DNA from: Alphaproteobacteria bacterium
GTDB taxonomy: Bacteria > Pseudomonadota > Alphaproteobacteria > SP197
NCBI GenBank assembly: GCA_965228895.1
Contig: OZ245842.1
Coordinates: 2,016,001-2,080,000 of the forward strand
Direction of reading: 5' to 3'
DNA: 64,000 nt
The position numbers and the translations under genes are program-made. Each line of letters begins with the position of its first letter. The stretch's first letter is position 1. Of this stretch, positions 47,872-64,000 are shown in pieces. The notes under the pieces are model-generated. The model worked only from the letters and a program-made list of their open reading frames with translations, did not search any database and was not told the origin of the DNA.

Positions 47872-48693
47872 TCAGGTTGATCGTTGATAGGCAAGCGAAA
47901 CCGCTTGCGCGGCTTTCAGGATGATCGGCTTCAGATCGCGTCTCGCCTTCGCCAAGGTGAAATCGTCGACATCAACCGTTAGCGCGACGGCGGCCACGGG
48001 CTGATTGGCGTAATCGAACACAGGCGCGCCAAGCGCGATGGCGCGGGGATGACACGCGCGATCGGTCAGGCTGTAGCCGAGTTCGCGGGTCTGCGACATC
48101 GCCGCCATGATGGCGTCCGTTTCGACAATCGTATGTTTGGTGATCGGGAGCCGTGGGCTGGTGGCGATCAGGTCGAAGGCGCTGCGTTGGGGCATGAAGG
48201 CCAGAATTGCCAGACCGGTTGGCGAACAGAAGGCCGGTTCGCGTACGCCCACCGACGGACCCTTCACCAACGAGAGTCGCTTTTCGGCCCCGGCCATGCT
48301 GATCAGGACGACACATTCGTTACCGTTGAGCACGCTCAACTCGAGCTGATGACCGCATTCGTCGGAAACATTCTGCAGAATAGGGAAGGCGCACGTGACC
48401 AGGGGGTCGTTGCCCAGATAGGCAACCGACCAGCTCAACACCTTGGACGAAAGCCTGTAGTGTCGGGTTCGCCGGTCCTGTACCAGATAGCCGGCGCTGA
48501 CCAGTGTCGTCAGAAGCCGTCGCGCGCCGCTGATCTCCAGACCGCTTAGCTGGACGATTTCGGTGAGCGACAGCTCACGGTGTCCAACGTCGAAGCACTC
48601 CATCACCCGCAAACCCTTAAGGAGGGTCTTGGCGAGGTTCGACGATGAGGGTCTACCGGGACCCAAGTCAGGCTCTAGCGTCAGGTCGGGCAC
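47872..48693 (-). CDS. IclR family transcriptional regulator
   Basis: KTLLKGLRVMECF...LSLTEI...RRLL.TL...GYL HTH; PAFCSPTGLAILA, ALGAPVFD; GGAGA RBS before GTG 48693 (alternative ATG 48714). Confidence 0.9.
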   Translation of the reverse strand: MPDLTLEPDLGPGRPSSSNLAKTLLKGLRVMECFDVGHRELSLTEIVQLSGLEISGARRLLTTLVSAGYLVQDRRTRHYRLSSKVLSWSVAYLGNDPLVTCAFPILQNVSDECGHQLELSVLNGNECVVLISMAGAEKRLSLVKGPSVGVREPAFCSPTGLAILAFMPQRSAFDLIATSPRLPITKHTIVETDAIMAAMSQTRELGYSLTDRACHPRAIALGAPVFDYANQPVAAVALTVDVDDFTLAKARRDLKPIILKAAQAVSLAYQRST

Positions 48694-48706
48694 GTTGTTC
48701 TCCGCA

Positions 48707-48726
48707 ATTGTCATTATGTGACAATC
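48707..48726. promoter_or_regulatory. Palindromic operator in the iclR / glmL divergent region
   Basis: ATTGTCA-TTATG-TGACAAT inverted repeat; near-identical to 36778-36795. Confidence 0.65.
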
Positions 48727-48848
48727 ATAGTGCATATTTGTTGCGATGTCTCGGCTGCGGACCTAGCCTTTTGAACCGCAATGCCGCCTGCGTTGCGGCT
48801 GGGGGTTGTGTCCAGGCGTCCGATATTCGGGCTGACACGGGAGCTGAC

Positions 48849-50288
48849 GTGACAAACGCGAGGCGGACCAAGGATAGGGCTGACGTGTTCCTCAGCGGGG
48901 AACGTAGCTGGAGCCGTGGCCTTCTGATCGATGTGGGCTCGACGTTCACCAAGGTCATGGTGATCGCGCCAAGTGGCGCGATGGTGGGACGCGCACAAGC
49001 CCCGACGACGATTGACGATGATGTGATGGAGGGGGTCACCGCTGCCCTCGGCCACCTGCCTGAGGACGCGCGCGACGACATCGACTGGGCGCTTGCCTCA
49101 AGCAGCGCGGCGGGCGGCCTGCGTATGGCGTCGGTCGGGCTGACCGCCAATCTGTCCGGTCGTGCCGGCGCGTTGGCGGCGTTCGGTGCCGGCGCCAAGG
49201 TGATCGCCAACGAACATGGCTTCTTGGATGACGAGGCCGTCGGCAGGATCGATGCGGAAACGCCCCATCTCGTGCTGTTGTCCGGCGGTTTAGACGGCGG
49301 CAACCGAGAGGCGCTGCTGCACAATGCCCGCAAGTTGACGGCGCTGAAGTCGGCGCGCGGGTTCATCGTCGCGGGCAATGTCGACGCTGCCGGCGAAGCC
49401 GATGCTTTGCTCAAAGTTGGCGACCGCGACGTGCGTGTCGTCGATAACGTCTTCCCACGTGCCGGCGAGATCGCGATGACCGCGACACGCGAGGCTGTGC
49501 GCGACCTCTTTTTGCAACACATCACCCAAGCCAAGGGCCTGGATGGCCTGATGGAGACTTTCGCGACGGAATGCGAACCGACTCCCCTGGCGGTCAGCCG
49601 CGCTCTCGCGCATCTGCCCGGGGAGGGCGGGCCGGTGGTGTTTGTCGATTTGGGTGGTGCGACGACCGACGTGCACTCGTTGGGCGGCGTCCGTGACGAC
49701 CACAGAGCGGTCGAAGTGCCCGATCCCGAAGTGATGCGCACGGTCGAAGGCGACTTGGGCATGCGTTGGGGCGCACCGGGTACGGTCGGTGCCATGTCAT
49801 CGGCCGACAGAGCCGCCGCTGAGGCAGTCCTGGGCTGTGATCTCGAACGAGAGGCCGACAAGCGGCGTGAGTCGCCGTCCTTTTTGCCTCAGACCGACCA
49901 TGACCGCGCCGTCGACCGTGTCTTGGCCCAGGCTGGGGTCGCGACGGCGATCGAGCGCCATGCCGGCAAGGTGGTCGTCCGCCATCGGCCGTGGGGCGAC
50001 CGCTATCAGGTGACGGGCAAGGATCTTCGCCAGACGCGGATGCTGGTCGCGACCGGCGGTGCGTTTCGCTATGGCCGTGACCCCCACTTGATGGTCTGTA
50101 CGGCCCTCGATGCGATTGAAGGCGCCCAGTCGCCACGCACCCCGGCCATCGCCATCGACAATGCCTATGCCCTCTATGTCATCGGCTTGCTCGCCCGCCT
50201 GGCGCCGGACTTGGCGCGACAGGTTGCGGCCCAAGCCATCGTTACGCCCAATCCATCAAGCCGACATCAGGAGGCACGCGCATCATGA
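48849..50288 (+). CDS. GlmL/MutL family (glutamate-mutase-associated) actin-like ATPase, probable B12-enzyme reactivase
   Basis: IDVGSTFTK, SSSAAGGLRM, GGLDGGN, IVAGN, PTP, VDLGGATTDVHS, RTVEGDLGMR; GGGAG RBS before GTG 48849. Confidence 0.85.
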   Translation: MTNARRTKDRADVFLSGERSWSRGLLIDVGSTFTKVMVIAPSGAMVGRAQAPTTIDDDVMEGVTAALGHLPEDARDDIDWALASSSAAGGLRMASVGLTANLSGRAGALAAFGAGAKVIANEHGFLDDEAVGRIDAETPHLVLLSGGLDGGNREALLHNARKLTALKSARGFIVAGNVDAAGEADALLKVGDRDVRVVDNVFPRAGEIAMTATREAVRDLFLQHITQAKGLDGLMETFATECEPTPLAVSRALAHLPGEGGPVVFVDLGGATTDVHSLGGVRDDHRAVEVPDPEVMRTVEGDLGMRWGAPGTVGAMSSADRAAAEAVLGCDLEREADKRRESPSFLPQTDHDRAVDRVLAQAGVATAIERHAGKVVVRHRPWGDRYQVTGKDLRQTRMLVATGGAFRYGRDPHLMVCTALDAIEGAQSPRTPAIAIDNAYALYVIGLLARLAPDLARQVAAQAIVTPNPSSRHQEARAS

Positions 50289-52036
50289 CAGGCAAACTTG
50301 AAGCCTATCTTCCCCAGGATTGTCCTGACGGTCTGGCCTTGCTCGAAGAAGGTCGGCGGCTCGGCGATGACGTCACGGTGGGTCGCAGCCTTCTGTGCGA
50401 AACCCATGGCGTTCGTTCGGAGGTCGAATACAAAAAGAAAATGGTCGAGGAGGGGCGCCTGATGACGTCCCTCAACATCGGCATGCAGACCTGGGCCGAT
50501 ACCGCCCGTGCGTTTGAGAAGATCTGGGACGAATCGGACAGACGTGGCTTTCGCATTGACCGCTATCAAATGCAGATGGATCGGCGTATGGGCCTGCCGC
50601 CTGAGCTTTGGGACCGCGCGGCCAAGGAGACCGGTCCGATGCTGGAAACCAAGGAGGACTGGTACGCGACCGCCCACACGGTGCCGATCCAGCCGCAGCT
50701 TGGCGACATGATGATCGGCTCGCCCATGTCGGTCAGCAACGCGCGCAACGCACTTGAGGCCGGCGTCAACTATATCGGCAACATGTCGCAGTTTGCCTGG
50801 AAGTATCCGGGCTGGCCGGGCGACGATGTCGAGCAGATGGCTGAAATGGTCAAGGCCTTGGGCCTGATGGCGGCCAAGCGCGACGACGACGCGATGATGC
50901 AGTCCTATCTGGAAGACGGCTATCCCGCGACCTTCAAGGACTATTGCTCCTATATCGGCTGGGCGCTCTTTGAGCGTTACCTTATCGATGACGTGATCGG
51001 TGCGCGCCTGTCGATCGCCTATGGCGGCCTGACCCACAATCCGGTCAGCAAGACAGCGGTGATCCTGGCGCTTGAGAAGATTAAGCCGGAAGGCACGTAC
51101 AACTCTTTCTATCATTGCAACACGACGGCCCATTCGCCGGAGATCGACGAGAACTTTGCCGTCGTCTCAATCGATGACCTCTACATCATGTTGGCCCAGC
51201 TCAAGACCAAGAGCGGCGCGGCCACGTTGTCGATCCCCGTTACAGAAGCGCTACGTGTGCCGTCCTGGGAAGAAATCGTTCAGGTTCAAACGGTCGCTCA
51301 TCGAGTCGCGCGCGACGCGCCACGGCTGATGGAGAGTTTCAATTGGGATCATATCGAGGCGATCAGCGAACGCATGATCGATGGCGGGCGCCGATTCTAC
51401 GCCAACATTTTGGAAGGCCTCACCGATCTGGGTGTCGACATGCGCGATCCCATGCAGCTCCTGCTGACGATCCGCCGCATGGGCGCGGCGACGATCGAGA
51501 ATCGTTGGGGTGTCGGCGAACTGCCGATATCGGATGCGGAAATGTATGTGCCGGAAGTGCCGACCGATACCTATCTCGACTATGTCGAACGGCGTTCGCG
51601 GGTCAAAAAGATTTTCAGCTCGGCGGGCATTCCCAAAAAGGAGCAGATCAGGCTCGTGGTCGGCTCCACCGACATCCATGAGTACGCGATGTTCCTCATC
51701 GTCGAGGGACTCACCATGGCCGGCATTCAGCCGGTTGTTGCCGGCACCAGTGTCGATCCCGATGAGTTTGCCGATTTAGCGCTGGAAGCGGGCGCCACGG
51801 CGATCCTGGTCTCGACCCACAACGGCATGGCGTTGACCTATGCGCGGCAATTGCATGACGAGGTTGTTGCCCGCGACCTCGATGTGACCATCGCGATGGG
51901 CGGCACGCTCAATCAAGATGTCGATGGCGAATCGACGCCGGTGGACGTTAAGGACGACCTGCGCGCGATGGGCGTCCACGTTTGCAGCGATGTCTCCGAT
52001 CTCTTGAACCTGATCGGCGCGACGTCACCAAGTTAG
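50285..52036 (+). CDS. Cobalamin-binding protein; putative single-chain AdoCbl-dependent mutase of unknown substrate
   Basis: C-terminal DIHEYA-x41-STH-x26-GG B12 motif; N-terminal barrel-sized domain with PVTEALRVPSWEE; ATGA overlap with the glmL-like gene. Confidence 0.75.
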   Translation: MTGKLEAYLPQDCPDGLALLEEGRRLGDDVTVGRSLLCETHGVRSEVEYKKKMVEEGRLMTSLNIGMQTWADTARAFEKIWDESDRRGFRIDRYQMQMDRRMGLPPELWDRAAKETGPMLETKEDWYATAHTVPIQPQLGDMMIGSPMSVSNARNALEAGVNYIGNMSQFAWKYPGWPGDDVEQMAEMVKALGLMAAKRDDDAMMQSYLEDGYPATFKDYCSYIGWALFERYLIDDVIGARLSIAYGGLTHNPVSKTAVILALEKIKPEGTYNSFYHCNTTAHSPEIDENFAVVSIDDLYIMLAQLKTKSGAATLSIPVTEALRVPSWEEIVQVQTVAHRVARDAPRLMESFNWDHIEAISERMIDGGRRFYANILEGLTDLGVDMRDPMQLLLTIRRMGAATIENRWGVGELPISDAEMYVPEVPTDTYLDYVERRSRVKKIFSSAGIPKKEQIRLVVGSTDIHEYAMFLIVEGLTMAGIQPVVAGTSVDPDEFADLALEAGATAILVSTHNGMALTYARQLHDEVVARDLDVTIAMGGTLNQDVDGESTPVDVKDDLRAMGVHVCSDVSDLLNLIGATSPS

Positions 52037-54472: not shown

Positions 54473-55156
54473 ATGAGTACCACGTTTATTGTCGACTCCA
54501 ACCGCCTCTCAAGGGAGGGCATGGTTCGTCTCTTGAGCGATACAAACTTCGATGTCCTGGGTCACGCCGGTGACATTAGCGGTCTTGATGACGGCTTGGC
54601 CGAATCCAGCCCGCCCGATCTGCTGCTGCTCGATTTGCCGCGCGAGACGGAGGGCCTGAAAGAGCGTCTTATCGAGCTGCGTGAGCGCGCGCCCAACATG
54701 AAGGTCGTCGTGCTGACCACCTCGGTTCAACCGCGGCCGCTTGCCGAGTACTTCAGTGCCGGCGTCGATGGTTATCTGTTGAAGGATATCTCGACCGAAG
54801 CCCTGATCGGATCGCTCAATCTGGTTCTGGCTGGCGAGCGGGTGTTCCCGTCACAGCTGATCCCGCTCATTCTCCGTGGCACCTCGGCGATGCCGACCAT
54901 GGCGAACACGGCGACAGCGGAAGGCGCCAATCTGTCAGACCGCGAGCTTCAGATCCTCGGCTGCCTCGTCGAGGGTGCGTCCAACAAGATGATCGCGAAC
55001 CGCCTGAGCGTGACCGAAGCGACCATCAAGGTTCACGTCAAAAGCATCCTGCGCAAGATCAACGCACAGAACCGCACGCAAGCGGCCATCTGGGCGCTGA
55101 ACAACGGCATTGCTGCGGATGCCGGCTTGATGATGGGACCCTCATCGCCCAACTGA
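54473..55156 (+). CDS. NarL/LuxR family response regulator
   Basis: REC (IVDS, LLLLD, VVLT, GYLLK) plus HTH LSDRELQILGCLVEGASNKMIA...TIKVHVKSILRK...NRTQAAIWA. Confidence 0.92.
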   Translation: MSTTFIVDSNRLSREGMVRLLSDTNFDVLGHAGDISGLDDGLAESSPPDLLLLDLPRETEGLKERLIELRERAPNMKVVVLTTSVQPRPLAEYFSAGVDGYLLKDISTEALIGSLNLVLAGERVFPSQLIPLILRGTSAMPTMANTATAEGANLSDRELQILGCLVEGASNKMIANRLSVTEATIKVHVKSILRKINAQNRTQAAIWALNNGIAADAGLMMGPSSPN

Positions 55157-55181
55157 GGGGATCCCACACTTGTGCGCTAAT

Positions 55182-55216
55182 GAGAATGCCGCCTCAAGGG
55201 GCGGCATTCTCTTTTT
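55182..55216 (+). terminator. Rho-independent terminator
   Basis: GAGAATGCCGCC-TCAAGG-GGCGGCATTCTC-TTTTT. Confidence 0.85.
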
Positions 55217-55514
55217 GGGCATCCGCCACCAACGAGCGGCGGCCGAGACGGCCTCGCTTGCACAAAGCAGCCGTCTGGCAACGTCACAGCTGTGCTTGGC
55301 GGGCGCGACGCCATGCCCCATGCGGGCTCTGGCCAACCGATACACCGATATCGTTTCGATGATCTCTTCGGCGTTCGCGCGGCGCGGCGATGGTCGAAGA
55401 ATCACTTCGCCGGCGATCTCGTCTTGCGGGAGTTAACCGCTCTACCGAGAGCGCCGGCGAAAGTTTGGCAGGAGAAAGCGCCAGGCCGAACCCGGCGCTG
55501 CTTACTCTCCGGTC

Positions 55515-56057
55515 TTATCCACCCAGGCCGAAGACCTGCGATGTCCACGTGTTGATTGCGTTCCCGGACCCACCGCCGAAGCCGTAGCTGCCGCCGAACG
55601 ACGGATAACCGCCGCCACCGGTCGTCGCGGCCACCAAGCGGAACGTCCAACTTGTGACGGTGATACCGGAGCTGGACCCGAAGCCGAGCAACAGCTGGCC
55701 GCCGTCGCCGCTTCCGGTGCCGACATTCTCGAAGAAGAGACCGCCCAGATCGAGGTCGCGACCGCGGAACTGCGGAATGATCTCGCCGCTGGCGCTGGTC
55801 ACGATCGGCACACGGCCGCCGCGGTTGTTCTGGGTGATGGTCAGCAGGGATCCGTCCGAAGCGCGCATGATGTTGTCGGGCGTCGCATTGAACAGCTGCT
55901 CGTTAATGATGGCCTGCCGCGCCGCCGTGCTCATGCCGACACCGCCGTCGGGCGTGTCGAACGAGAACGGCTCGTTGTTCAGTTGGGCGTTGGCCGATGC
56001 CACATGGAGCAGAGCTACTGCACCAATCATGGCTGCCACGGCTAAACGAAATCGCAT
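55515..56057 (-). CDS. Secreted Gly/Ser-rich hypothetical protein
   Basis: AGGAGAG RBS; signal peptide ending ASANA; two G-rich/W-T repeats near the C-terminus. Confidence 0.75.
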   Translation of the reverse strand: MRFRLAVAAMIGAVALLHVASANAQLNNEPFSFDTPDGGVGMSTAARQAIINEQLFNATPDNIMRASDGSLLTITQNNRGGRVPIVTSASGEIIPQFRGRDLDLGGLFFENVGTGSGDGGQLLLGFGSSSGITVTSWTFRLVAATTGGGGYPSFGGSYGFGGGSGNAINTWTSQVFGLGG

Positions 56058-56206
56058 CGGTTCTCTCCTGCCTTACAATGACGGGGCCGAACCTTTTGGC
56101 CCCCCTCATCGCAAATTAAGCCGTAATCTGGACCAAATAATCAAGTGGATTGCGCCAACCCGGTCTACAATCCCGCCTAATAACCTTGATCCACCCCTTT
56201 AGATCG

Positions 56207-56884
56207 TCAGTTCAGACTGGTCTCCAAAGACCGCGCGGCGGGCACGAATGCTTGAATTGCGGCGAAAACAGCAGCTTCTGTTCTGTTTCTAAGCTGCAAT
56301 TTACCCAAAAGGCTCCGTACCACGTACTTCACGTTGGCTTCGGTCATATCCAGTTCTTCGGATATCGTCCGGTTGCTCTTGCCTTCGCCAAGCAACGCCA
56401 GCACCTGCTGTTCGGTCGGCGTCAACGACGACAGAAGCTGCAGGCGCAGTTCGGTCACCGTAAACGACGGCGTCATAAAAGGCGGCACCAGGCAGTAACC
56501 ATCGAGGCTGAGCCGCGCGACCTCGGCCGTCAGCGGCAGTTGCTCATCAACGAACAACCAGGCATCAACCAACGACAAGAGGTTTGTTGCCTGCAGGAGG
56601 TCATCGCGCCTGAGCGCCACGACAATGGTCGCGCGCCGCGAGACCCTCAGCAGATCGGCATACTCCATATCATTCAGCTTGGTGTGCCAAACGATCACGA
56701 CATTGGGCCGGCCATTCTCGGAATTCTGCGTTGGCAAGTCCGACAGGCGCTTGGCCTGGTTGAGCTGAATGCCGTGCTCTTCGGCCATCGCCCGTTGAAG
56801 CTGGAGTTCGGGCGTAGAGCCCTCGGCTACAATGGCGACGTTGAGGGGTCGTGCAGCACTTGTTTCACTTGTTTGCATCCTCAT
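56207..56884 (-). CDS. LuxR-type HTH regulator with degenerate receiver domain
   Basis: C-terminal LTPTEQQVLALLGEGKSNRTISEEL.MTEANVK..V..LLGKL...NRTEAAVFA; no phosphoacceptor Asp recognisable (VVIVWH). Confidence 0.85.
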   Translation of the reverse strand: MRMQTSETSAARPLNVAIVAEGSTPELQLQRAMAEEHGIQLNQAKRLSDLPTQNSENGRPNVVIVWHTKLNDMEYADLLRVSRRATIVVALRRDDLLQATNLLSLVDAWLFVDEQLPLTAEVARLSLDGYCLVPPFMTPSFTVTELRLQLLSSLTPTEQQVLALLGEGKSNRTISEELDMTEANVKYVVRSLLGKLQLRNRTEAAVFAAIQAFVPAARSLETSLN

Positions 56885-57260
56885 GCAGTCCCTGTTCAGA
56901 ATTGGTCCCTAATTCTTGCATCACGTTGGTTCGCGCAAAGTGGTGCCTGGTTTTTTTATGCGGCACCTTTGTTGGGCAGATGACGAGCGCGGATGTCTTG
57001 CGACACCTGCGACCGGGTAACAACACGTTGGCTGAGCAAGACGCCTTGTTCATGGCGGCGTCAGGTCAACCGACAGAGCACGGTCTTGAGGCAGATCGCG
57101 CTCGCTCTATCGATCGGGCCGTTCGGCTTTTGACGAGTTTCCAAGCTTCTTAACCGCCCAATGCTACATGGGTGTTGAGAGATGCCAACACCACGACCTG
57201 CAGTTTGTCAAAAATCCGTGACTACACCACGGGTAAAAAGGTCTACGACTTTGGATGAGT

Positions 57261-57276
57261 GTTAACTAAATATTAA
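57261..57276 (-). promoter_or_regulatory. CtrA-type binding site
   Basis: + strand GTTAACTAAATATTAA reads TTAA-TATTTAG-TTAAC on the - strand, the full TTAA-N7-TTAAC consensus, about 220 bp upstream of the CsgG/HfaB gene. Confidence 0.65.
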
Positions 57277-57493
57277 GAACCCGATTACCCTTTAGATAGT
57301 AGCCTATCCTTTTTAATTACGAGGAGAGAAGGGGGTAATCCCTTTTCCGGTGCGATTAGTACTTCTTAACTCTTACCTTTTCTGACCCCTTCCGTAAGCT
57401 TCAACGCACGAGATTTCACGTCATTGCCGGAGGCGATCCGGCGTACCCGGTTCCGACTGCGAGCGTTACCGGGTTTGAGGAGGGTCCAGCAAA

Positions 57494-58312
57494 ATGCGTC
57501 TATTCGTTCCTGCGGCAATTGCGGCTGTTGCTCTTGTTGTAACGGCTTGCAGCACCGGTCCCTACCCGAAGGAAGGCGTACAGCCTGCCTTCAGCTTCCC
57601 GGTTACCAGTAATGACACGCCTTACAGTCAGTGCCTGCGGGCGCTGAGCGAGGTTCAGGGTAACAATCTGCCGGTATTTGCTGTGGGCGAAGTCGCCGAC
57701 AAGACGGGCCAGATCAACTATGACGAAAACGGCTATGCGCTGTCGCAGGGCGTTTCCGAAATGGTGATCAGCGCGCTCGCCAAGACCGACAAGGCGAACC
57801 TGGTTGAGCGCTTGGACCTGCGCATCCCTCTCGCCGAAGTCCAGTTGGCCGAACAGGGCCGCCTGTCGCGCTCGGCTGATGAGTACACCGATCTTCCCGC
57901 CAGCGATTTTGTCATCGCCGGCGCTCTGACTGAGCTCAACTACAACATCGTCAGCGAAGGCGCCCAGCTGTTCATCGACGGCATTGGCGGCGGCGCCCGC
58001 ACGGTGGTCATCAACGTGGCGCTCGACATGCGCGTGATCAGCTCGCGTACCTTCGCTGTGCCCTTTGTGGTGAGCCTGCAGAAACAGATTTACGGGTTCG
58101 AAGTCGAAGCGAACGTGTTCCGCTTCTTCGGCGACACCCTGGTTGAGTTTGACGCCGGACGGATCAGGAATGAACCGCTCCAGCTCGGCGTCCGTTCCGT
58201 CGTTGAAATGGGTGTTTACCAGATCATGACGGAATTCCTTGGTCTGCCCGCGAGCGAGAGCTGCCGTCTCGTTGAGACAGACCATATGGCGTCGTACCTC
58301 GAGCAGCTCTAA
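57494..58312 (+). CDS. CsgG/HfaB family outer-membrane lipoprotein (holdfast anchor HfaB-like)
   Basis: Lipobox VTAC; PVTSNDTPYS.CL, AVGEVADKTG, SQG.SEM.ISAL.K, LVER.D, GALTELNYNI, ALDMRVI, QKQIYG.EV, EPLQLGVRSVVE. Confidence 0.82.
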   Translation: MRLFVPAAIAAVALVVTACSTGPYPKEGVQPAFSFPVTSNDTPYSQCLRALSEVQGNNLPVFAVGEVADKTGQINYDENGYALSQGVSEMVISALAKTDKANLVERLDLRIPLAEVQLAEQGRLSRSADEYTDLPASDFVIAGALTELNYNIVSEGAQLFIDGIGGGARTVVINVALDMRVISSRTFAVPFVVSLQKQIYGFEVEANVFRFFGDTLVEFDAGRIRNEPLQLGVRSVVEMGVYQIMTEFLGLPASESCRLVETDHMASYLEQL

Positions 58313-58335
58313 ATCCTGAAAGGAGAATGGTAGTT

Positions 58336-59433
58336 ATGAATACGTTCGGTAAAGCGACCCTTCTGGCCGGCGCCTCCGCCGTTGCCATGGGTCTGGCCAC
58401 CACCCAGGCTTCCGCTTTTGAGGATGTCGATTGGGACTGGTACGCCAACATCTACGAGAAGATCTTCATCAAGGTTAAGATCGATCCCACATTCGATCCC
58501 TCGGGTCTGGTTCAGGTCGAGAAGCTTCAGATCTTTGTTGGCGACGTGAAGGCCAACGCTTGGGTCGACGCTGTCCTGCACAAGCCTGCCGCGCCTGGCT
58601 ACGAGATCAAGACTCTGACCTCGAGCACGACCGGTGAGTTCTCGGGCACGTTCGAAGGCGGCTTCAAGGGCGTTACCAAGGGCGTGGTTCTCGACGAAGA
58701 GATCGCCTACCTGAAGAAGGGCAAGAAATGCTCGGGCAACTGGTGGGATCGCAAGTGCGAAGACGTCCTGATTCCCAAGTACGTCGATGACAAGGATCCG
58801 TTCTATGGCGTGACCTACGGCAAGCTCGGCGGCACGTTCGGCGGCGAGTTCAGCTCGTACACCGAGTATGACGTGATCATTCCGGATCCGTTCACTCTTG
58901 ACCAGCTGCCGTTGGTTGAGATTGCGGCGACCGCGATCGGCAACGCCGAGAGCATCGACTCCGACGTGGCCGTGATGGTCCACGAAGGTCAGTTCGTCGT
59001 TGGTGATGGCGACGACGGTCACCTCCCGTATTGGGTTGGCGACGCCAACGCCCACACATCGCTGGCTGATGCGCTTCTCTACATGGCCCTCGACGGTCAG
59101 CTGGAGAAGGCCACCATCTCGGCCAATGCTGGCTCGTACTACATCCAGCAGGCTCAGGCTGACATCTCCGCGACTGCTGTTGCCAACTCGAACAGCATAA
59201 ACGTTGATGCCGCCTCGCGTGACGATGCGATCGTGATCGCTGACCTCACCCAGTTCGCGTATGCCGATGTCTCGGCCAACGCTTACCTGGGCGTGCACTA
59301 TCTCGACAACTATGTCGACCTCGGCACGATGGTTGATGCTGACGGCGTCCGCCAGGCTGTGACTTCGGTTACCGCCACGGCCGTTGGCAACGTCTCCAGC
59401 ATCACGGTCTGCGCCGTCAACTGCGGCGACTAA
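58336..59433 (+). CDS. Secreted beta-rich repeat protein (HfaD-like ATAxGN repeats); candidate fibre/anchor major subunit
   Basis: Signal peptide ending QASA; repeats AATAIGN, SATAVAN, TATAVGN and Q...(G/A)DV.ANA; AAGGAG RBS. Confidence 0.75.
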   Translation: MNTFGKATLLAGASAVAMGLATTQASAFEDVDWDWYANIYEKIFIKVKIDPTFDPSGLVQVEKLQIFVGDVKANAWVDAVLHKPAAPGYEIKTLTSSTTGEFSGTFEGGFKGVTKGVVLDEEIAYLKKGKKCSGNWWDRKCEDVLIPKYVDDKDPFYGVTYGKLGGTFGGEFSSYTEYDVIIPDPFTLDQLPLVEIAATAIGNAESIDSDVAVMVHEGQFVVGDGDDGHLPYWVGDANAHTSLADALLYMALDGQLEKATISANAGSYYIQQAQADISATAVANSNSINVDAASRDDAIVIADLTQFAYADVSANAYLGVHYLDNYVDLGTMVDADGVRQAVTSVTATAVGNVSSITVCAVNCGD

Positions 59434-59489
59434 GACTGTGTGAGGTGTAAGGTTCGGGTGACAGTTTGATCATCCGCAAGTGTTGGGAA

Positions 59490-59519
59490 GCCGGGATGCA
59501 GCAGGTGCTGCATCCCGGC
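59490..59519. repeat. Perfect 14-bp inverted repeat (intercistronic hairpin, no U-tract)
   Basis: GCCGGGATGCAGCA-GG-TGCTGCATCCCGGC. Confidence 0.85.
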
Positions 59520-59579
59520 GACCCTCCTCTCCCGCAAACACTCTTGGATCGGCAAATCCTGTTCGGAAGGAGAAGAATG

Positions 59580-59990
59580 ATGGTAACAAAGTTTCGGAAC
59601 ATCGCCGCCGCCCTGGCTGCTACGGCCGCTATCGGCGCAATTGCTGCGCCTGCCGGCGCGCAGATGTTCGAGGGCGCCTATCAGAACAACAACCGCGACG
59701 GCCTGAGCAGCGCTGTGGTGATGAAGCAGGTTGATGAAGGCCTGTTCTCGCAACAGCAGCCGGTTGTTTCCGGTGGCAGCAGCGGCGGCGGCGACATTCT
59801 GCTGTGCGGCTCCGACGAGTCACAGTCGTCCGCCACCGCCAACTCGTCCTGCATCATCATCGGTGACGGCGCCACCGCCATCATCGACATGGGCCAGGAC
59901 AGCCTTGGCGACCAGGACGCCAACGCGGAATCGAACCAGGAAGTCAACGGCGATCTGTCAGACGCCCTGGAGTCCCTTAGCGGCGGTTGA
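59580..59990 (+). CDS. Small secreted S/G/D/Q-rich protein (HfaA-like C-terminal motif)
   Basis: AGGAG RBS; signal peptide ending PAGA; SSATANSSCIIIGDGATAIIDMGQDSLGDQDANA. Confidence 0.72.
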   Translation: MVTKFRNIAAALAATAAIGAIAAPAGAQMFEGAYQNNNRDGLSSAVVMKQVDEGLFSQQQPVVSGGSSGGGDILLCGSDESQSSATANSSCIIIGDGATAIIDMGQDSLGDQDANAESNQEVNGDLSDALESLSGG

Positions 59991-60370: not shown

Positions 60371-61813
60371 ATGCTTTTTTTGACAGATAGCTTGGGATCC
60401 GTCAGCGATCACGCCACGGAACGGCGTTGGTCGGGAACCGACATTGCCACGGCTGCCCGGCAGCGCCATAAGGCGCTTGTCGACGGTGGGGTCGGGCCAG
60501 GCGACACGGTCGCTTTGTGGCAGGCGGGCTCGGGCGCTTTTTTTGCCGATCTTCTTGGCGCTTGGGCTGCCGGGGCGGCGGTTGCCGTCCTCAACCCCGG
60601 CCTGACGCCAGAGGAGATCGACAAGGTGGTCGGCCACATTCATCCGAAAATGGTGCTGGTCGATGGCGAACTCGATAGGGGCCGCTCGATCTTCACGATC
60701 CCGGTTATCGACTTCGGGGCGTCGGTTGGGCCGGACATGGCGTCCCGGACGGACCGGCGCCCTGCTCTCGACGATCCCGCCCTTATGTTGTTTACGTCCG
60801 GCACGACGGGTACGCCTAAGGGCGTCGTGCACACGTTCCGCTCGCTTGTCGCGCGACTGGCGCTGAACGAGACCTTTATGGGACGGGCCGATATGCGCCG
60901 GACGTTGTGCACACTGCCGACCCATTTCGGCCACGGCTTGATCGGCAATTGCCTGACACCGCTGCTTGATGGCGGCGATGTCGTGTTGATGGCCGGCAGC
61001 GACGCGCGTGCGGTGATGCAGCTTGGCGCGACCCTTGACCGGTACGCGATCACCTTCATGAGTTCGGTGCCTGCCTTGTGGAAGATGGCACTCAAGATGT
61101 CGAAGCCGCCGCAGGACGCAACGCTCCGTCGTGTTCACATTGGATCCGCGCCGTTGTCCGCCGATCTTTGGTCCAAGGTCGTCGATTGGTGCGGCACCAG
61201 GAACGTCGTCAACATGTATGGCATCACCGAAACCGCCAACTGGATCGGCGGTGCGTCTGCCGAAGACTTCGAGCCCCAGGACGGCCTGGTCGGCAGGTTG
61301 TGGGGCGGCCAGGCGGGCGTTCTGGGCGAGAGTGGTGACGTGCGAAGTGAAGGCGAGGGCGAGATCCTCATTCAGGCTCCGTCTCTTATGGCCGGCTATT
61401 TTGACCTTGATGATCTGACATCCCAGGTCCTCAAGGACGGTTGGTTTCATACCGGCGATATCGGCCGCCTTGAAGGCGGCGTCATCCGTCTGACGGGCCG
61501 TGAGAAGTACGAGATCAACCGAGCCGGCATGAAAGTCCATCCCGAGGACATCGATTTGCTTCTGGAGCGTCATGAAGGCGTCGTGGAGGCGTGTGCCTTC
61601 GGCGTCCCTGATCCGATCGTCGGCGAGGTCGTCTGCGTTGCCGTGGTGCTTGACGATGGAAAGGACATCAATGACATCAAGGCGTGGTGCGCCCAACGGC
61701 TGGTTCGCGAAAAGAACCCGGAGAAGTGGTTTGTTCTGGATGCGATACCCAAGACAGACCGAGGCAAGATAAATCGAAAGGTAGTCGCCGACGCCTGCTT
61801 TTCGACGATTTGA
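60371..61813 (+). CDS. Class I adenylate-forming enzyme (acyl-CoA/acyl-ACP ligase)
   Basis: FTSGTTGTPKG, YGITE, GWFHTGDIG, GR.K..INRAG.KVHPEDI, PKTDRGK. Confidence 0.92.
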   Translation: MLFLTDSLGSVSDHATERRWSGTDIATAARQRHKALVDGGVGPGDTVALWQAGSGAFFADLLGAWAAGAAVAVLNPGLTPEEIDKVVGHIHPKMVLVDGELDRGRSIFTIPVIDFGASVGPDMASRTDRRPALDDPALMLFTSGTTGTPKGVVHTFRSLVARLALNETFMGRADMRRTLCTLPTHFGHGLIGNCLTPLLDGGDVVLMAGSDARAVMQLGATLDRYAITFMSSVPALWKMALKMSKPPQDATLRRVHIGSAPLSADLWSKVVDWCGTRNVVNMYGITETANWIGGASAEDFEPQDGLVGRLWGGQAGVLGESGDVRSEGEGEILIQAPSLMAGYFDLDDLTSQVLKDGWFHTGDIGRLEGGVIRLTGREKYEINRAGMKVHPEDIDLLLERHEGVVEACAFGVPDPIVGEVVCVAVVLDDGKDINDIKAWCAQRLVREKNPEKWFVLDAIPKTDRGKINRKVVADACFSTI

Positions 61814-61886
61814 ACCCGTAACCGCGGCGGCCCGGTCCGCGGCTTATGTGCAACCCACCATTACCTTGCCCACTCGGAGTTTCCCC

Positions 61887-62474
61887 ATGCCAGCGAACAC
61901 ACCTCGCCCCAAACCGATCAGGCTGGTGACCGACCGGTTCTTGCTGCGAACGTTACGGCCGCAAGACGTCACGCCGTCGCTTTTGGCGTGGATTGCCGAT
62001 CCTGAAGTCATGGAGCCGATCAACCAGCGGCCCATTCAGATCTCCCGCGAGCGGATGGCAGGCATCATCGCTTCATGCGACGGCGTCGAAGATACCTACA
62101 TCGGCATCTTCGAGCGCAAGTCCAGCACGTATATCGGCAACTACATGCTCCACTTCGATCGAAAGGAGCTGACGGTGACCTTCGACGTTCTTATTGGCGA
62201 TAAGTCCTTCTGGGGCCAAAAGGTTGTCCTTGAGACCCGTCCGGTGCTGTTGGACCATGTTTTCAAGTACGGCTTTGAGAAGGCAGTTGGCCGCCCGCCG
62301 GCGCGAAACTTCGCGTCGGTTTTCAACTACAAGACGGAAGGTTGGCGATTGGAGGGCATCCTGAAAGGTCAGCTGAAGCACCGCTATGGCGAGGGTCGGC
62401 TGGATCAGTATGAGTTTGGACTTTTGAAAGACGAGTGGCTCGCAATGCGTAAGGAGAGGCGTGATGACGATTAA
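61887..62474 (+). CDS. GNAT family (RimJ/RimL/PseH-like) acyltransferase, copy 1
   Basis: TDRFLLRTL, IGN, LIGDKSFWG, N.ASV..Y...GWRLEGILK. Confidence 0.82.
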   Translation: MPANTPRPKPIRLVTDRFLLRTLRPQDVTPSLLAWIADPEVMEPINQRPIQISRERMAGIIASCDGVEDTYIGIFERKSSTYIGNYMLHFDRKELTVTFDVLIGDKSFWGQKVVLETRPVLLDHVFKYGFEKAVGRPPARNFASVFNYKTEGWRLEGILKGQLKHRYGEGRLDQYEFGLLKDEWLAMRKERRDDD

Positions 62475-62703
62475 CCTTGATTGTGCTCGAGAAATCCTTG
62501 CGGCCGCGCTCGAGATAACGACCGATCGTGTCCCGGGTTCCGCACGGCTGGGCGACCCCGAGGCTTGGGACAGCTTGGCCCATTTGCGGTTGATCCTGGC
62601 GATCGAGGAAAAACTGGGGCGCGAACTCGGCGCCGAACAGATCATCGAGATCGAGTGCCTCGAGGATGTCGCGGGATTGCTGGACGGTCATGCCACCGAC
62701 TGA
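62464..62703 (+). CDS. Acyl carrier protein
   Basis: About 79 aa and acidic; WDSLAHL phosphopantetheine site; AAGGAGAGG RBS. Confidence 0.88.
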   Translation: MTINLDCAREILAAALEITTDRVPGSARLGDPEAWDSLAHLRLILAIEEKLGRELGAEQIIEIECLEDVAGLLDGHATD

Positions 62704-63337
62704 CAAGAAACCGGTCCCGGTCAGACTTACCACCGAACGCTTTCTTTTGCGTTCACTGGAACCGGGTGATGCGACGGAGCGGTTCGCCGCCTGGCTGGCC
62801 GACCCGGAGGTGATGAAGCCGCTCAACAAGCCGTCAAGCCAACTGACCGTCCAGCAGCTGCAGGGAATCATCCTGGCCTGCGACGGAATCAATACCTTTC
62901 AGATCGGCATTTTCGAGCGTCGGTCAAAAACGCATATCGGCAACTTCTACGTCTACCTTGATAACGTGCATCAATTGGCGACCTTTGACGTGTTGATCGG
63001 TGACACCGGCTTTTGGGGTAGCAAGGTGGTCAACGAGTGTCGCGCTGCCTTGCTCGATCATTTCTTCCGCGTGCGCGGTGTCGAAAAGGTCATCGGTCGA
63101 CCGCTCGCGCGAAACTTTTCCTCTGTTTTCAACTACAAGACCCAGGGCTGGCATCTGGAAGGTATTCTGAAAAGCCACTGGAAATCGTTCTATGGTGAAG
63201 GCCGGCTCGACCAGTACAAATTCAGCATGCTGAAGGATGATTGGCGGTCCCGACAAAAGGCCAACCAGCCCACACCCAAACAACCCAAACAGAAAAAGGG
63301 CGGTCGCAAAAAGACTGTGGTCGGCTCAAGTCGTTGA
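62690..63337 (+). CDS. GNAT family (RimJ/RimL/PseH-like) acyltransferase, copy 2
   Basis: TERFLLRSL, LIGDTGFWG, ARNFSSVFNYKTQGWHLEGILK; clear paralog of 61887-62474. Confidence 0.82.
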   Translation: MPPTDKKPVPVRLTTERFLLRSLEPGDATERFAAWLADPEVMKPLNKPSSQLTVQQLQGIILACDGINTFQIGIFERRSKTHIGNFYVYLDNVHQLATFDVLIGDTGFWGSKVVNECRAALLDHFFRVRGVEKVIGRPLARNFSSVFNYKTQGWHLEGILKSHWKSFYGEGRLDQYKFSMLKDDWRSRQKANQPTPKQPKQKKGGRKKTVVGSSR

Positions 63338-64000
63338 GCAGGCATTCCACCCGACCTCTGATGCGCTACCCGTCTATCATCAACCGCAGATCTACGTCGC
63401 ATGTCTCAGAATGCCCACAGTTGTGTCCCACAACCGCACGGTGCCGGCCTGGCGGCCGGATCGGACCTACCGTGTCAAACGGAAGCTACACCGATGATCT
63501 GGAAGGGCCGTCGATTGGGTGCGTGGGCAGGTTTGTGGGTTCTGTTATGATGAGAGGTGCGGGGCATCCGTGTAGGATCAGAGTTAAGGAGAGCGTGTGA
63601 CGAGGTATCGACACAGGCCTTCGGCGAATAAGTTAGGCAGCACGCCATCACAACGCCGGTTGTTCGGGCGCCGTACGTTTGTGCTTGTGCTGCTGTCCGG
63701 TCTGATCGCCGCTGCAACGGTTGGCTCCTTTGTCACGAGTAGTGTCCGCGCTGTGGAGCCGTACTTCTGTATCGAGTTGGTGCTGTCACGAAACTGGCCG
63801 GCTGCGCAGTTCTACTGCGATGCCGCATCGATGCCCGACGACATCGGCATCGTACTGGCTGAGGGCATCGCTTACTACTTTGGTGCGCAAAACGCCGGCG
63901 ATGTGGCCCATGCCGGACGACTGTGGCGAAGCCTGCCACCATTGGCGAATGTAGGCGAGTGGCGCAATGTCGCCGGCGTCTATGACGCGGAAATCGACAT

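Follow-up and report, generated by a model that had tools for sequence, protein, structure and literature searches.

The closest described relatives of the system considered here belong to the Hfa (holdfast anchor) machinery of the Caulobacterales, HfaA-HfaB-HfaD(-HfaE), in which a CsgG-type lipoprotein accompanies secreted proteins that carry one or several copies of the same repeat. HfaA and HfaD have long been called amyloid-like, and we know of no structure for either protein. Passages of one study describe HfaD-dependent multimers of HfaA that resist sodium dodecyl sulphate (SDS), and a requirement for HfaB in the surface targeting of HfaA and HfaD (PMC6707917). A pore of the same family serves the curli or type VIII system (CsgA, B, D, E, F and G), and excerpts of another paper treat many CsgG matches outside curli systems as probable paralogs (PMC3521004). 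We compared these systems with a six-gene locus, termed G-D-A after three of its genes, located at positions 54473 to 59990 of a 64,000-nucleotide stretch (the window) of an alphaproteobacterial genome of the lineage SP197 (GCA_965228895.1, contig OZ245842.1, positions 2,016,001 to 2,080,000, forward strand).

The G-D-A locus is a conserved, uncharacterised distant sister of the Hfa system and not a wholly new type of machine. We consider it probable that this sister system exports the protein D in a type VIII-like manner, and that D is the chief building block of a variable beta-solenoid fibre to which A contributes as a minor adaptor; the fibre, its amyloid state and export through G are predicted from sequence and structural models. 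The genome is a single contig of 5.53 Mb (98.7% complete), and all six open reading frames lie where an initial annotation, made from the letters alone, had placed them. That annotation proposed a type VIII-like module distinct from csg and canonical hfaABD, with a gene order unlike hfaABD and no curlin repeats, csgE/csgF or hfs cluster. These proposals were borne out: the absences extend to the whole genome, and the order is G-D-A in the loci examined, compared with A-B-D in true hfa loci.

G (57494–58312, plus strand) encodes an outer-membrane lipoprotein channel of the CsgG/HfaB family, as had been recognised initially (PF03783, E 2e-24), with the lipobox LVVTAC, whose cysteine is present in 31 of 31 homologues checked. 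It is the sole CsgG-family gene of the genome. The protein aligns with E. coli CsgG structures (E 3e-13), and its best NCBIfam model is that of HfaB (NF037935), on which it scores 167 bits against a cut-off of 300; on the CsgG model it reaches 48.6 bits against 505. By such comparisons G is closer to HfaB than to CsgG, yet it falls in a separate clade. In a quick tree, which has one CsgG outgroup and does not establish monophyly of the G group, HfaB forms its own 15-row clade (Shimodaira–Hasegawa support, SH, 97) past a branch of 1.62 (SH-like approximate likelihood ratio test, SH-aLRT, 99), G lies outside it, and the nearest named rows along the tree path are those of Pelagibius. By the defining tests, those on G together with those on the repeat proteins and partner genes described below, the system belongs to neither curli nor Hfa.

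D (58336–59433, plus strand) has a signal peptide, an N-terminal strand, three Hfa-type repeat units (rungs) and two inserts, and A (59580–59990, plus strand) is a small secreted HfaA-like protein, predicted to be a minor subunit or adaptor. Like the accessory protein S described below, neither has a meaningful family match in Pfam or NCBIfam, and relatives of D (105 in one search; 304 clusters at 50% identity, E up to 0.001) are called 'hypothetical protein' where they carry a name. A repeat shared by D, in three units, and A, in one, had been noticed at the outset, and the motif positions agree with it. In D, three Q..(G/A)D..A halves (residues 65, 219 and 306) and three ATA-x-G/A-N halves (198, 279 and 347) are laid out Q half first and ATA half last, as in HfaD; A has one ATA-to-Q unit, as HfaA has a single unit. 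A hidden Markov model (HMM) of the rung, built from D, was used to search 134 proteins of the loci together with reversed decoys made from them, and 5,075 proteins predicted from the genome. At E < 0.01 it matched only D, an orphan D paralog, the A family (A of the window and 2 of 72 rows), 5 of 11 HfaA and 1 of 11 HfaD, and none of the reversed decoys.

True hfa loci were extracted (five HfaA/HfaD genes were checked; four match the models, two over cut-off), and mature-region profiles were compared by hhalign with 30 column shuffles and reversed targets as controls. A aligned with HfaA (probability P 79%, E 1.5e-5, 41 columns, score 33.8, shuffle maximum 18.5), D with HfaA (E 2.4e-4, score 32.3, shuffle maximum 17.3) and D with HfaD (E 9e-4, 69 columns, score 31.4, shuffle maximum 20.1), and all three alignments surpassed the reversed targets as well; the HfaA and HfaD profiles are about as close to each other (P 78%). 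An iterated A HMM pulled in HfaA, and because iteration may contaminate, non-iterated tests were used. An HMM built from HfaA found A as its sole match in six frames of the genome (E 0.046), and the Pfam family HfaA (PF27294) is recorded for 3 of 106 D homologues. Serving as leads only, HfaD clusters are the nearest named clusters to D in the Atlas (0.85 and 0.83), and an HfaA cluster ranks 14 for A. Judged from these profiles, the homology of D and A to HfaA and HfaD is real but confined to the repeat. Three parts of D fail to align with HfaD, namely the conserved N-terminal strand, the variable hairpin insert and the helix insert; the N-termini of A and HfaA do not align either, and D is hypervariable.

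Searches of the whole genome separate the locus further from both described systems. It resembles curli in its CsgG-family pore, in the logic of major and minor subunits and in a LuxR-type regulator near the operon. Unlike curli, it has no curlin repeat (the best match to PF07012, at E 0.82, lies elsewhere in the genome, and there is none in D or A), and neither CsgE nor CsgF is detectable genome-wide. The models of HfaA (NF037934) and HfaD (NF037936) find nothing in the genome at E 10; within the families, NF037934 gives weak matches to 2 of 72 A members (best E 4e-5) and NF037936 matches 0 of 106 D members at E 1. HfaE was sought with three proteins near true hfa loci that carry a PHPASQV-type motif, the motif named for HfaE in 10.1101/2022.07.20.500906, and with one look-alike; the best tblastn match in the genome has E 0.085, and there is no HMM match. 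Queries for HfsA, B, F and G and C- or K-like proteins found no tblastn match in the genome, which holds generic HfsE- and HfsD-like genes only (HfsF model, 35 of 700 bits). Plain HfaA/HfaD orthologues beside an ordinary hfs locus, which the initial annotation had named as grounds for dropping its proposal, were looked for genome-wide and not found. Also unlike Hfa, the locus has an additional S gene and LuxR genes.

The D model made with AlphaFold from 106 sequences (pLDDT 78.8, pTM 0.64) is almost entirely beta, with low confidence for residues 1–49, one helix insert at 239–252 and a long hairpin at 89–183. This hairpin forms a hypervariable insert (residues ~82–188) of 27 to 135 residues in the family, with a mean identity of 22% compared with 47% for the core. 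A beta-solenoid is the most likely fold, and to that extent the initial proposal of a novel beta-solenoid fibre stands; the repeat itself is not novel, being that of HfaA and HfaD. The structure prediction and profile searches that had been suggested gave the predicted beta fold and the kinship to HfaA/HfaD at the level of the repeat, with no significant fold match and no curlin or Fap family match. The Fap system of Pseudomonas uses a different exporter. Parts of one study describe FapC with three imperfect repeats per monomer, one layer each, and linkers of variable length (PMC12392863), a plan that D resembles, and FapC is the top structural match of the D model, below significance; unlike Fap proteins, D and A have no Fap family match in Pfam.

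Covariation within the D family bears on how subunits might be joined, a logic that has also been applied to CsgA. In a mean-field analysis of 281 D sequences (effective number 186), with couplings counted at z > 3, in-register positions were coupled at 17 of 48 between rungs 1 and 2, 15 of 48 between rungs 2 and 3, and 18 of 48 between rungs 1 and 3; off-register couplings numbered 1–5 of 45–47, against a background of 0.9%. Removal of same-residue terms left 14, 11 and 13 of 48, respectively. The rung 1–3 coupling was found at 14 of 48 in each random half of the data, and the in-register result also survived stricter reweighting. Because a linear stack of three rungs has two internal interfaces, a third, equally strong interface between rungs 1 and 3 points to a contact between subunits, and it suggests head-to-tail stacking of D. 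Couplings (A37-Q60, z 13; I45-M214; V31-H216) also tie the conserved N-terminal strand to the rungs' first strands, which is consistent with packing of this strand on the solenoid, probably as an extra layer or latch.

Many alphaproteobacteria of marine and fresh waters share the G-D-A cluster. When 185,579 species genomes were scanned, 58 D loci emerged. G accompanies D in 54 of them and A does so in 54; an R1-like gene is found in 50, S in 27, an S-like gene (S2) in 18 and an R2-like gene in 20. The loci that lack G number four: two Tagaea loci, which have tandem D genes, and two that begin at a contig end. Of 401 genomes sampled evenly from the class, 47 had an HfaB-model match, 16 of them over cut-off, and 13, including that of the window, had this G with an adjoining D. 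Named relatives that group sensibly are all alphaproteobacterial, and records titled Flavobacteriaceae or Bifidobacterium, whose G falls among alphaproteobacterial rows, would appear to be mislabelled.

Conservation along the locus is very uneven. Relative to the two congeners, R1, R2 and G are 98.5–99.6% identical (R1 99.6% in both), compared with 93–94% for S, 71% and 88% for A, and 47% and 77% for D; in one congener (G001) the DNA alignment stops over most of D. Among 169 pairs of loci with G at least 88% identical, drawn from 64 loci and so not independent, D has a median identity of 54% and falls below 70% in 129. Four HfaB/HfaD control pairs (97/96, 83/61, 77/61 and 81/54) show that slow pores with fast cargo are a general feature, which accounts for part of this gap. 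Across 16 related loci median identities are 93 for G, 82 for R1, 57 for A and 52 for D, and D and A co-vary when G and R1 are controlled for (partial r 0.59, with kin not independent).

The spacer between D and A contains a perfect 13-bp stem-loop (59490–59519, plus strand) that has no U-tract and may act as an mRNA 3′ stabiliser or attenuator. Within 110 bases of the D stop codon, 64 of 71 loci have a hairpin with z < −2, compared with 8 of 71 in the interior of D and 25 of 120 among spacers between co-directional genes of the genome. The hairpin is not fixed in sequence, and congener G001 shows three compensatory pair changes. In fimbrial operons, hairpins of this type increase the amount of the mRNA that precedes them, in keeping with D as major subunit and A as minor subunit. 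Metatranscriptome contigs from three runs of two studies lie mostly over D among the matches listed, with one spanning the G-D boundary (58165–58613) and the last ending at 59486; they cannot rank expression and may include carried-over DNA, and we draw nothing from their absence over A and the greater part of G. Runs with a small share, apart from these three, were left out as evidence on habitat.

Upstream of G lie the secreted G/S-rich protein and the two LuxR-type regulators that the initial annotation had listed. S (55515–56057, minus strand) is a secreted accessory protein with a signal peptide and a G/S-rich C-terminal half, and its AlphaFold model (pLDDT 43) was unusable. Its mature N-terminus resembles that of A (hhalign E 5e-4 over 23 columns, above 30 shuffles), and we would guess from this shared motif at a role in targeting or pore binding. 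Against the CsgF of one genome (G033) the A profile gave E 0.69 and the S profile E 0.22, and a CsgF-like role for A or S was rejected because there is no sequence match to CsgF. The family TafF was also dropped for A: the match is weak (6 of 72 A members, best E 0.068) and the family haloarchaeal. S2 is a distant S-like gene in the position of S (hhalign P 63%, E 7e-5). A short orphan S paralog of 113 aa (G000:C1:3535119-3535460, E 1.6e-26) has retained the N-terminal motif together with a single C-terminal W motif. R1 (54473–55156, plus strand) is a NarL/LuxR-type response regulator with receiver and helix-turn-helix domains (GerE 3e-20, Response_reg 5e-11), and R2 (56207–56884, minus strand), divergent from G, matches GerE (1e-14) and not Response_reg. 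The analogy first drawn with CsgD is weak, R1 scoring 72.7 bits against a cut-off of 250 on the CsgD-type model and higher on that of NarL. Between the convergent R1 and S lies a terminator-like hairpin (55182–55211, plus strand) with a 13-bp stem and a U-tract, a pattern match only.

Taken together, these features allow a mechanism to be proposed. R1 and R2 may control G-D-A and S, as their synteny would suggest. By homology, G would oligomerise in the outer membrane as a CsgG-like ring and let through, in unfolded form, the Sec-exported chains of D, A and probably S. D would be the bulk subunit, its three rungs folding into a beta-solenoid and stacking head-to-tail, rung 3 on rung 1 of the next subunit, into a continuous cross-beta fibre. 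The long variable hairpin would point outward as the exposed, fast-exchanged face, and the stem-loop after D would hold D mRNA above that of A. With its one matching rung and the N-terminal motif shared with S, A may serve as the minor nucleator or adaptor that joins the fibre to G. The fibre would likely serve in adhesion, as matrix or as a shield, and no dedicated pathway for holdfast polysaccharide would be involved. A bolder version, which we put forward tentatively and would not yet back as a whole, makes this a third CsgG-secreted fibre lineage across many alphaproteobacterial families: a functional amyloid with a three-rung cross-beta core and an exchangeable outward hairpin (27–135 residues), swapped together with its cognate one-rung nucleator behind a near-invariant pore, under flagellin-like diversifying pressure and not dependent on holdfast polysaccharide.

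Several observations weigh against the fibre interpretation. Fold searches with D against the PDB and viral models gave no significant structural match; FapC came top in three structure searches, weakly so (Foldseek E 0.06, Z 3.3, rmsd 6.0), and no PDB chain matched the D and A sequence profiles at E 1. The rung coupling is in large part between identical residues (S-S, N-N), repeat homogenisation or transitive coupling via rung 2 could mimic part of the signal, and the covariation test covered the D family alone. When reversed, the A profile still matches itself at P 73%, so its P of 79% to HfaA is partly low-complexity; profile matches of A to D (E 0.045), of A to HfaD (E 0.07) and of D to one long Caulobacter-type HfaD (E 0.19) are not significant. 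Two Tagaea genomes carry two tandem D genes (L025:7830-10081 and L026:7947-9997) and no HfaB-model match in their assemblies. Upstream of G there is no conserved regulator-binding motif (information 11.2, compared with 9.8–10.3 in shuffles), and no common upstream motif links R1 and R2 to the operon. Finally, the missing hfs genes do not exclude an anchor role: 9 of 12 genomes with true HfaB also lack HfsG, and a general Wza/Wzc locus lies ~820 kb away in the genome of the window.

These last two facts belong to the best surviving alternative, in which short D/A oligomers act like a holdfast anchor and, without forming a long fibre, hold a capsule or non-hfs exopolysaccharide at the outer membrane. 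The closest characterised relatives tether polysaccharide, according to passages of two reports (PMC6707917, 10.1101/2022.07.20.500906), and D shares both the repeat and the half order of HfaD. HfsG is found in 0 of 50 carrier genomes (a set representing 50 of the 58 loci, near-duplicates and fragments being left out) and in 3 of 12 true-HfaB genomes, and its rarity in the latter means that its absence separates little. We nevertheless regard an anchor as unlikely. HfaE is missing; true HfaB is kept alongside G in 3 of the 50 carriers; the 40 neighbour clusters most shared among 75 loci, judged by representatives of which some were Pfam-scanned, include no polysaccharide export family; and the hypervariability of D and the hairpin that would stabilise its mRNA better match a bulk, exposed subunit.

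Stacks of D might instead form a surface coat, mesh or sheath, an S-layer-like shield against phage or grazers, rather than a projecting adhesive fibre. The exchange of D alleles between congeners with near-identical G would suit such a shield, as would the concentration of change in D relative to a near-identical strain (at least 24 of 71 differences in 8,001 bases, D being 14% of the stretch) and the several D alleles seen in one RNA run. The in-register, cyclic couplings indicate one-dimensional stacking, however, no lattice fold was matched, and presence is patchy (both congeners carry the system and 0 of 22 further genomes of the family do, hence 2 of 24), so that a coat seems improbable to us. 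An interpretation in which D and A stay soluble after secretion or in the periplasm, do not polymerise, and show coupled rungs as a trace of repeat history could account for the confident monomer core and the same-residue part of the couplings; it is very hard to reconcile with rungs just 35–37% identical inside one protein, with coupling that survives removal of same-residue terms, and with fixed linkage to a CsgG-type pore, given that CsgG-family cargoes described in parts of PMC6707917 and PMC3521004 polymerise. Divergent hfaB, hfaD and hfaA orthologues in rearranged order, as the HfaB model and the repeat homology might suggest, are largely refuted, because G lies below cut-off and outside the HfaB clade on a long branch (SH-aLRT 99), true HfaB accompanies G in 3 of 50 carriers, and the genome has no HfaA, HfaD or HfaE.

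Other members of these families were encountered along the way. A further HfaB-like clade (220–234 bits; L117:4378-5172, L119:4239-4952, L124:6039-6731 and L118:5753-6463) is preceded by a different secreted family of 230–260 aa with the start NG.LE.RPWQFDT, and one genome (G058) has this clade as well as a G-D-A system. Three loci of one genus (g15; L070, L113 and L123) have HfaB above the model cut-off with no HfaA or HfaD found within ~5 kb. A search of viral contigs, reaching close relatives only, found no relative of G. One genome has five G copies, three of them in tandem G-D-A repeats. A 20-kb region of G352 holds three G, four D and four A genes in tandem (L135:4917-16051), with a hairpin after each D. 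The orphan D paralog of the window's genome (G000:C1:2108969-2110219; L003:790-2040) lies ~33 kb past D and has a signal peptide, an E of 1.9e-20 to the D HMM and no adjoining G or A. It is flanked on one side by folK-rpoZ-spoT-like genes and on the other by a gene that we take to be NYN-domain-like, and it is possible that it is a second cargo of the single G.

Upstream of the locus (48645–52036) are a MutL/GlmL-like protein (PF13941) and a B12-binding mutase-like protein, kept in the congeners and unrelated to the locus. Directly after A (60371–63337) come an acyl-CoA ligase, two RimJ/L-type GNATs and an acyl carrier protein, which have matches from congeners only among 75 loci compared, diverge more than the G region, and could acylate a surface glycan. 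From 63597 to the end of the window at 64000, and on to G000:C1:2086573, follow genes also seen in other G-D-A loci. They encode a Sel1-repeat protein (found in 12 of 58 loci), a Cys-containing lipoprotein with no name (15 of 58) and TPR proteins (25 of 58); a homologue of TPR-GT41 glycosyltransferases is also among them, together with cytochrome c and IalB-like genes, which Pelagibius loci likewise contain. The G-D-A locus may extend further downstream, and glycosylation of the fibre is conceivable.

A literature search, with subscription journals and supplements mostly outside its reach, found no paper describing the locus; PMC13723633, in the part of its text available, is unrelated to the system and was set aside. 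The D family is deep enough in sequences for its stacking register to be predicted, and there are cultured carriers (Thalassospira, Pelagibius litoralis, Oceanibaculum pacificum and Tianweitania) in which the question of whether Hfa-type repeats build fibres can be addressed by electron cryomicroscopy. A fibre of D would provide a role for orphan CsgG paralogs, a common class of proteins, and would offer a natural scaffold that tolerates large inserts. It would also show that one near-invariant pore exports highly divergent cargo.

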